Part shown: positions 31,822 to 32,490 of the stretch, one piece after another
Layout of the letters: every line of letters begins with the position of its first letter
Position numbering within the stretch: the first letter of the stretch is position 1
NCBI RefSeq assembly: GCF_003334385.1
Contig: NZ_QOWN01000006.1
Strand: one strand, 5' to 3'
Length of the DNA: 64,000 nucleotides
Source: Escherichia coli
GTDB taxonomy: Bacteria > Pseudomonadota > Gammaproteobacteria > Enterobacterales > Enterobacteriaceae
Notes under the pieces: generated by a model
What the model was told of the DNA's origin: nothing
Database searches by the model: none
Seen by the model: only the letters and a program-made list of their open reading frames with translations
Position numbers and translations under genes: made by a program

Positions 31822-31910
31822 TTTTTTTGCGCTGACTTCAGTTATTTAACAGAACAGTGCCTGGTAGTAACAACAATAATTTGCCAAGACAAATAAGTAA
31901 GACAAACTCA

Positions 31911-31941
31911 GACACGCTCATACTTGAGTCGTGTCTTTTTT
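31911..31941 (+). terminator. Possible zinT terminator
   Basis: agacacg ... cgtgtct inverted repeat followed by tttttt, about 90 bp past the zinT stop. Confidence 0.35.
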
Positions 31942-32490
31942 ATTATGTCTGTAGAAAAAAAATGCGAAAAAGGCGAACAATAAATACACAACTCAGCCAT
32001 ACAGACTGGCAGCGCAAATGTTTCCAGGAGCAAGTCATCTGTCATGGTAAAGCTAACCAGAAATATAGGTTAATTTTGGTGTTTAAACCTTTTTTACTTG
32101 TTAGTATGATACAAAGGCTTTCAAAAAAGCTGGGAAATTCAACAACTCTTGGAAATTATGGACTTTGTCCCGCGGCTTTAATCTGACGGCCGCGTTCCTT
32201 TTTTGACTCAATTATTGACCCCTTCTCTACGCAACTTCAGTTCCCGCCAGCAACTTTGCGGCAGTTTCATAGGATCAATGTCTAAAAGAATAATGGTGAC
32301 CGATAAGAAAACGACTGAATAACTGTAGATTTTCGCTCGAAACCTTCCTGTCAGCTCCATAGCGAATCAAGTGCTGAATGTCACAGTATCGAACAGAAAA
32401 CAGTGACGATCTAACCCTTCAAGAATATTCTACGATTGTTCTGTTTAGGAAAAGCAAGGCGGGAAGTCAGGAGATAAGTCATTGATAAAG

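Follow-up and report, generated by a model that had tools for sequence, protein, structure and literature searches.

The interval between zinT and serU (positions 31822-32490) of a 64,000-nt stretch of Escherichia coli DNA (contig NZ_QOWN01000006.1 of assembly GCF_003334385.1; the whole stretch is called the window) is very probably a non-coding intergenic spacer, namely the yodB-less allele of the zinT-serU interval of this species. This reading builds on direct observations of the gene order, the alignment breakpoints, the population frequencies, the absence of a coding signal, and the hairpins. An earlier note, made from the sequence alone, had described an AT-rich spacer of about 670 bp between zinT and a tRNA-Ser gene in which no protein gene was plausible. 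The coordinates (669 bp) and the composition agree with that description, the G+C content being 39.0% in the spacer (36-42% in 200-nt windows) vs. 53.8% in the whole window. The spacer of strain 7/2 is 100% identical, and the spacer was matched in 5421 of the 5426 complete E. coli genomes that were searched.

Comparison with K-12 and distribution of the two alleles

In both K-12 records, yodB (531 bp, encoding a putative cytochrome b561; Pfam PF01292) is located between zinT and serU, and the interval measures 1442 bp. The earlier note had given this position correctly, and the reference annotation places the gene here and not elsewhere. The alignment with the K-12 interval that the note had proposed was carried out. 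Identity was 97.6% up to the end of the zinT stop codon (31821), whereupon homology broke off, to restart at 32044 with 96.8% identity; no megablast-level similarity was detected between these two positions. The breakpoints enclose 222 bp in the window vs. 995 bp in K-12. A degraded remnant of yodB was also sought. A permissive tblastn search with the K-12 YodB sequence against the spacer (E up to 1000) returned short random matches only, and no similarity between the yodB coding sequence and the window was found by blastn with 7-nt words.

The 222-bp segment that lacks yodB was present in 2305 of the 5426 complete genomes (ca. 42%), and the 995-bp yodB segment of K-12 in 3114, including K-12, HS, O157:H7, and O111:H8. 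Nearly every genome appears to carry one allele or the other (the two counts sum to 5419). The identity of the 222-bp allele to the window was at least 99% in 792 genomes, 95-99% in 1100, and 90-95% in 413. Because identity ranges from 90 to 100% within the allele, it is regarded as old and as spread over several lineages. The species as a whole is polymorphic for yodB, with two alleles, and the gene was not lost in this strain alone. The proposal that yodB is absent or replaced in this strain was right as to the absence, with the refinement that the yodB-less state is one of two old alleles and no peculiarity of the strain.

Coding potential of the spacer

The Prokaryotic Genome Annotation Pipeline placed no feature in the zinT-serU spacer of strain 7/2 or of any of 30 sampled genomes. 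An Rfam search (E up to 1) yielded two tRNAs, the remaining matches being sub-threshold noise, and no family was found in the spacer. One such match, to sX4 (25.5 bits vs. a threshold of 70), overlaps serU and was dismissed as noise; another, to naRNA4, lies outside the spacer. Repeats within the spacer were short and at chance level only.

The 109-aa open reading frame (ORF) at 31857-32186, which the earlier note had listed as the only ORF, is the sole one that reaches 60 aa, and it is accompanied by about ten shorter ORFs (30-50 aa). The doubt that the note had cast on this frame was well placed. The frame spans the zinT terminator as well as the allele junction, and no Shine-Dalgarno sequence could be read ahead of its GTG start. 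No family matches were obtained in NCBIfam (E up to 1) or in Pfam (E up to 10). When the window was compared with strain E20, 5 synonymous and 13 non-synonymous changes were counted in the frame (random expectation, 21% synonymous), vs. 11 synonymous and 5 non-synonymous changes in zinT. A stop codon interrupts the frame in strain HS-02, E. albertii lacks an equivalent of it, and in K-12 its N-terminal half is replaced. The 109-aa ORF evolves neutrally and is not coding. Among the smaller frames, the 35-aa ORF at 32378-32485 has lost its ATG in E. albertii, where its changes are mostly non-synonymous.

The probable zinT terminator

The terminator-like hairpin that the earlier note had placed at 31911-31941 is real, with its stem beginning one nucleotide sooner. 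Its free energy is -17.1 kcal/mol, compared to -7.7 +/- 2.6 kcal/mol for 200 shuffled sequences (z = -3.6; 2 of the 200 fold as well). It is located 89 nt past the zinT stop codon, carries a U6 tail, and has the sequence features of a Rho-independent terminator; a simple terminator scan missed it because of the bulge in its stem. The same hairpin is found 89-93 nt past the zinT stop codon in E. albertii and K-12, and paired changes were observed in its stem (AGACAC/GTGTCT to AGGCAC/GTGCCT). Because the hairpin follows the zinT stop codon by 89 nt, a terminator is a fitting interpretation, and transcription of zinT probably ends here in vivo. No zinT 3' end is listed in the Term-seq data for K-12, a strain that carries the other allele. 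The K-12 hairpin (locus L001, 1598-1626; L numbers denote fetched loci, with their own coordinates) is conserved and lacks the following U-run. Termination of zinT may differ between the two alleles.

The second terminator and a candidate small RNA

A second intrinsic terminator (free energy -14.9 kcal/mol, z = -2.5) is located at the end of a 112-bp unit in the middle of the spacer (Table 1). In K-12, an "orphan" 3' end was reported from Term-seq at NC_000913.3 position 2043181 (+) (Adams et al. 2021, supplementary file 1). This position maps to 32204 of the window, the last U of the terminator, and the sequence there is identical; the site thus combines a stem-loop with a mapped 3' end. The orphan end is given in two of the three places in the supplement that list neighbouring 3' ends. 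In addition, a node named yodB.serU.IGR was recorded by ligation and sequencing of interacting RNAs (RIL-seq), with 39 and 33 Hfq chimeric fragments and a U-tract of 6 (Bar et al. 2021, Table S1). It was always the second RNA in the chimera, its strand was not stated, and its small-RNA (sRNA) classifier scores (0.010 and 0.046) were under the authors' cut-off of 0.1. The statement that the spacer holds no gene is valid for protein genes only: in K-12, transcription extends over part of the spacer and is terminated there.

A promoter-like site upstream of the second terminator matches the consensus at 9 of 12 positions; in this AT-rich spacer DNA, 8 such matches were found vs. 4.3 expected. No start site for a candidate RNA was present in the supplements of the Cappable-seq and SMRT-Cappable-seq studies. 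The 112-bp unit, which is flanked by direct repeats, is also deleted in Escherichia sp. MOD1-EC7003, and neither conservation beyond E. coli nor a family match (Rfam, E up to 1) marks it as an established sRNA. A mobile-element origin for the unit was considered and rejected: it is single-copy, and its matches in the plasmid collection were mislabelled chromosomal records plus one match of 49 nt (84%). In K-12, the equivalent of 32171-32204 is the first terminator-like site downstream of yodB, and it may be the end of a 283-nt 3' untranslated region (UTR) of yodB. The duplex predicted between the candidate RNA and ompF, a partner inferred from the RIL-seq table, was no better than those of shuffled sequences.

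Relatives of the locus and origin of yodB

E. albertii (NBRC 107761, locus L005) has no yodB, and its alignment to the window is unbroken from 31033 to 32093, i.e., across the allele junction. Its identity to the 222-bp segment is 69% (z = 13.5 against shuffles). In Escherichia sp. MOD1-EC7003, positions 31824-32344 are deleted, including the zinT terminator, and ca. 146 bp of the spacer are left (L004 4651-4816); because this strain has lost the stretch altogether, the spacer is considered dispensable.

No YodB homologue was found beside zinT in two other Escherichia species or in the loci fetched from other genera. The only other zinT-adjacent copies of yodB were on two contigs from metagenome-assembled genomes, both of E. 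coli-like sequence. The nearest YodB homologues outside E. coli were only 72-77% identical, and their genes stood in unrelated contexts with DNA homology limited to the coding sequence; those of Salmonella and one other lineage had different chromosomal neighbours. In the YodB clusters formed at 90% identity or more, all named members were from E. coli. When a donor of this allele was sought, the K-12 flanks of yodB resembled none of the fetched loci, and YodB proteins of apparently intermediate identity (84-92%) proved to be frameshifted or partial E. coli copies. The closest homologue outside E. coli, that of Citrobacter portucalensis (L084 5001-5540, 76%), is a prophage accessory (moron) gene situated between the lysis cassette and the HNH/terminase genes.

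We infer that the arrangement without yodB goes back at least to the divergence from E. albertii, and that the yodB allele stems from imported DNA, foreign or diverged, and not from a recent simple insertion or deletion. Three observations misfit a simple insertion, namely the remote homology of the K-12 sequence after zinT to the 222-bp segment, the cluster of differences at 32051-32081, and the lack of detectable homology downstream of yodB in K-12; the two alleles are therefore deeply diverged haplotypes. As to polarity, the ancestral state is favoured to be the yodB-less one.

Association with the high-pathogenicity island

The end of the high-pathogenicity island (HPI) adjoins asnT in ca. 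2319-2345 of the complete genomes. A chimeric query composed of the K-12 yodB-to-asnT segment and the HPI end was covered to at least 80% in only 419 genomes. By subtraction of these counts, as opposed to a per-genome cross-table, it is estimated that ca. 1900 of the 2305 yodB-less genomes (ca. 82%) carry the HPI vs. 419 of the 3114 yodB-positive ones (ca. 13%). This estimate fits published work. An ST410 (sequence type 410) subclone that gained fyuA lost yodB, and the presence or absence of yodB separates ST410 subclones and is tied to HPI acquisition (PMC10786849). The HPI has also been described as spreading within E. coli by homologous recombination that carries its upstream flank, including yeeI/mtfA (PMC2606025).

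Genomes with both yodB and the HPI were 347 bp longer over the same interval (3846 vs. 3499 bp). This length difference suggests an internal deletion in the window at the HPI integrase (33809-34724), a frameshifted pseudogene.

The serU flank and lambdoid phages

Window positions 32213-32552, which comprise the 278-bp flank downstream of serU and the 3' 62 nt of the tRNA gene, match the phages ev099 and mEp332 over 338-340 bp, with an identity of 96.5-96.8%. In these phages, the segment has the tail-fibre genes on one side and an araC/IS block on the other; ca. 2 kb away is an integrase, annotated in ev099 only. PhiR70_1 matches the 278-bp flank only (96.0%). A partial prophage record, SerU-LTIIb, contains a tail-fibre gene, a 62-nt pseudo-tRNA-Ser, this spacer, and yodB. 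The 62 nt appear to be the recombination core.

The region has the features of a tRNA-linked attachment region, in that the identity includes the 3' part of the tRNA gene and other records have elements inserted at serU. Islands with an integrase adjoin the spacer at serU in strains E20 and BH100 (L096 and L098, ca. 3283-3448); in Escherichia sp. MOD1-EC7003, serU is truncated and adjoins unrelated DNA. The phage copies of the flank are 3-6 nt from one chromosomal haplotype. Because they fall within the diversity of E. coli chromosomes at this distance, the similarity points to recent exchange, either through capture by aberrant excision or through recombination across the repeats in lysogens. 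The transfer may have run in either direction, the phage having taken up the host flank or the host having kept a phage arm.

The serU flank is also the best-conserved part of the spacer: over 146 bp, five yodB-less E. coli strains vary at two sites, and identity to E. albertii is ca. 88%. A structured RNA was considered here and rejected: shuffled sequences fold better than the minus strand of 32345-32490 does (z = +1.7).

Features of the locus

The features of the spacer and its neighbours are collected in Table 1. Upstream of zinT, an element resembling a repetitive extragenic palindrome (REP) was observed at 30913-30978, between msrQ and zinT; it gave a weak match to naRNA4 of Rfam (35.8 bits vs. 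a threshold of 59.5). The stretch around it, ca. 30956-31032, is absent in E. albertii. Directly upstream of zinT, at 31112-31133, is the palindrome TGTTATAT-N6-ATATAACA, which we take to be a candidate Zur box from its resemblance to such sites, as would be expected for a zinc-regulated gene.

Table 1. Coordinates of the features at the zinT-serU spacer (window numbering, except in the last line)
Feature	Position	Strand	Remarks
msrQ	30279-30914	+	
zinT coding sequence, left boundary of spacer	31171-31821	+	ORF; annotated as zinT in strain 7/2 and K-12; 97.6% identity to K-12
zinT-serU spacer	31822-32490		669 bp
Allele-specific segment	31822-32043		222 bp; 995 bp with yodB instead in K-12-type strains
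Spurious 109-aa ORF	31857-32186	+	GTG start; not a gene
Intrinsic terminator of zinT (probable)	31910-31941	+	11-bp stem with one bulge at 31910-31936, then U-run to 31941
Transition zone	32044-32081		Clustered allele-class differences; 7 of 18 right-side mismatches to K-12
Promoter-like site	32082-32110	+	TTTAAA-17-TATGAT; consensus match only, 9 of 12; also at the homologous K-12 position
112-bp unit	32094-32205	+	Direct-repeat flanks CCTTTTTT; shared by both E. coli alleles; lacking in E. albertii
Second intrinsic terminator	32171-32204	+	Stem CGCGGCU/GGCCGCG (7 bp), 10-nt loop, then UUCCUUUUUU
serU-downstream flank common to serU-integrating lambdoid phages	32213-32490		278 bp; homology runs on to 32552
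serU, tRNA-Ser(CGA), right boundary of spacer	32491-32580	-	ARAGORN; Rfam tRNA, 57 bits; annotation
mtfA	32674-33471	+	
asnT	33572-33647	+	
HPI integrase, frameshifted	33809-34724	+	Annotation of identical strain 7/2
Flank-matching segments in phage loci	L102 3001-3340; L101 2051-2388; L103 9169-9677		Phage-locus coordinates

Discussion

On the preferred reading, the interval consists of four consecutive pieces. The first is the zinT 3' UTR, in which the Rho-independent terminator at 31910-31941 would stop zinT transcription. It is followed by ca. 100-140 bp of unconstrained filler, extending to 32043-32081, at the position where other E. coli lineages have a block of ca. 0.8 kb with the yodB promoter and gene. 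The third piece is the E. coli-specific 112-bp unit, ending in the second plus-strand terminator (32171-32204), and the fourth the 278-bp flank downstream of the convergently transcribed serU. This flank and the 3' 62 nt of the tRNA gene would together form the homology region used by serU-integrating lambdoid phages. The strain is devoid of the cytochrome b561 paralogue YodB, with nothing in its place.

Several observations weigh against one part or another of this reading, and they are taken up here with the alternatives that they favour. That the spacer is a decayed yodB pseudogene, left after this strain underwent a recent deletion or mutation, is barely credible: the position of the gap agrees with it and nothing further does. 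Similarity to YodB is absent in all frames, as is similarity to yodB DNA, and the same 222 bp are found in 2305 genomes with up to 7% divergence and, in alignable form, in E. albertii. The population counts, the E. albertii alignment, and the tblastn search refute it. A real lineage-specific protein encoded by the 109-aa ORF or by a smaller one is hardly less improbable. The 109-aa frame is open in the window and in three of the four other yodB-less strains that were examined. However, it has a GTG start without a Shine-Dalgarno sequence, passes through the zinT terminator, lacks family matches, shows neutral substitutions, meets a stop codon in HS-02, is absent in E. albertii, and has its upstream half replaced in K-12; the 35-aa ORF fares no better, given its lost ATG and its mostly non-synonymous changes. 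Family searches and the substitution pattern rule out a coding ORF. "Non-coding" does not mean "untranscribed", for the homologous K-12 interval gives rise to an RNA 3' end and to Hfq chimeras. It is conceivable, if doubtful, that a plus-strand sRNA gene of ca. 88 nt, so far unannotated, is driven by a sigma-70 promoter at 32082-32110, ends with the terminator at 32171-32204, and acts via Hfq; it would be compatible with the preferred explanation for the remaining spacer. The promoter-like site is conserved in both alleles, the hairpin with its U6 folds well, the orphan 3' end of K-12 falls exactly on the last U, and the yodB.serU.IGR node contributed 39 and 33 chimeras, always as the second RNA and with a U-tract of 6. 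Against these points stand the classifier scores below the cut-off, the lack of an Rfam match even at E = 1, the absence of the unit in E. albertii, the lack of a start site in the two supplements, the ompF duplex no better than shuffles, and the frequency of promoter-like matches in this DNA; in K-12, moreover, the 3' end may be just that of the yodB 3' UTR. The fuller claim, in which the 112-bp unit is an independently transcribed, Hfq-associated sRNA gene of ca. 88 nt that is unannotated in K-12 and kept in yodB-less strains, is marginally less likely still.

The remaining alternative concerns the order of the alleles. It holds that yodB was ancestral at the locus in E. coli and that an old deletion, or a yodB-less tract imported from a different Escherichia lineage, gave rise to the yodB-less allele, which was spread with the HPI at a later stage. 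This history is not likely, yet it accounts for several facts. The terminator unit, which would serve yodB in K-12, is kept in both E. coli alleles and missing in E. albertii, a distribution that would be compatible, too, with the later deletion of an ancestral yodB. Seven clustered differences occur at 32051-32081 (six of them within 16 nt), and at six of the seven K-12 matches E. albertii, so that K-12 is here the more E. albertii-like allele; four other yodB-less strains agree with the window at 32051-32066. A simple insertion/deletion model leaves this cluster unexplained. The yodB-less allele is, by the estimate above (ca. 1900 of 2305 vs. 419 of 3114), strongly associated with the HPI, which moves together with its flanks. 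Further, the first ca. 190 nt that follow zinT in K-12 show remote but significant homology to the 222-bp segment (z = 5), and the hairpin core of K-12 is nearly identical to that of the window, closer than that of E. albertii. Only a single E. albertii genome and a single further Escherichia species served as outgroups. In favour of a yodB-less ancestor, the 222-bp segment is collinear with E. albertii over the junction, whereas the 122 bp that follow yodB in K-12 have no detectable homology to either the 222-bp allele or E. albertii. Moreover, yodB is found at 90% identity or more in E. coli only and elsewhere stands in unrelated, partly prophage contexts, and the internal divergence of the yodB-less allele, up to 7%, suggests an age beyond that of the HPI sweep. 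On balance, a yodB-less ancestor is the more probable.

The finding is an ordinary one, and both annotation and the literature already document that yodB may be present or absent. Only two leads are mildly novel: the orphan terminator with its candidate sRNA, and the long phage-chromosome homology at serU. For annotation, the interval is rightly empty of protein genes, and the absence of yodB is a normal allele and not a defect of the assembly or strain. For population genomics, the presence or absence of yodB is a handy marker of the haplotype upstream of the HPI and has been so used for ST410 (PMC10786849). For biology at large, the significance is small.

Comparison with known systems

The zinT-yodB-serU interval of K-12 (b1973-b1975) has the same flanking genes as the window, namely msrQ, zinT, serU, mtfA, and asnT, and the 447 bp proximal to serU, in which the second terminator and the promoter-like site lie, show 96-97% identity. 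It differs in having 995 bp with yodB in place of the 222 bp, and in a zinT hairpin without a U-tract. The E. albertii spacer, like that of the window, is yodB-less, is collinear with the 222-bp segment and the junction, and has the same terminator hairpin with compensatory changes. In contrast, it is only ca. 69% identical in the left part, it lacks the 112-bp unit (32094-32205), and it is poorly alignable at 32206-32344.

With the orphan and 3'-UTR-derived Hfq RNAs of K-12 (Adams 2021; Melamed 2016/Bar 2021), the candidate RNA has in common a terminator hairpin followed by a U-tract, a 3' end that was mapped in K-12, and a place as the second partner in Hfq chimeras. Unlike them, it has no name, validated 5' end, or known target, its classifier score is low, and it is conserved in E. 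coli only. Finally, the serU end of the spacer resembles the attachment regions of serU phages. It differs from them in that the window carries no prophage or island at serU and in that the homology is far longer than the usual attB core.

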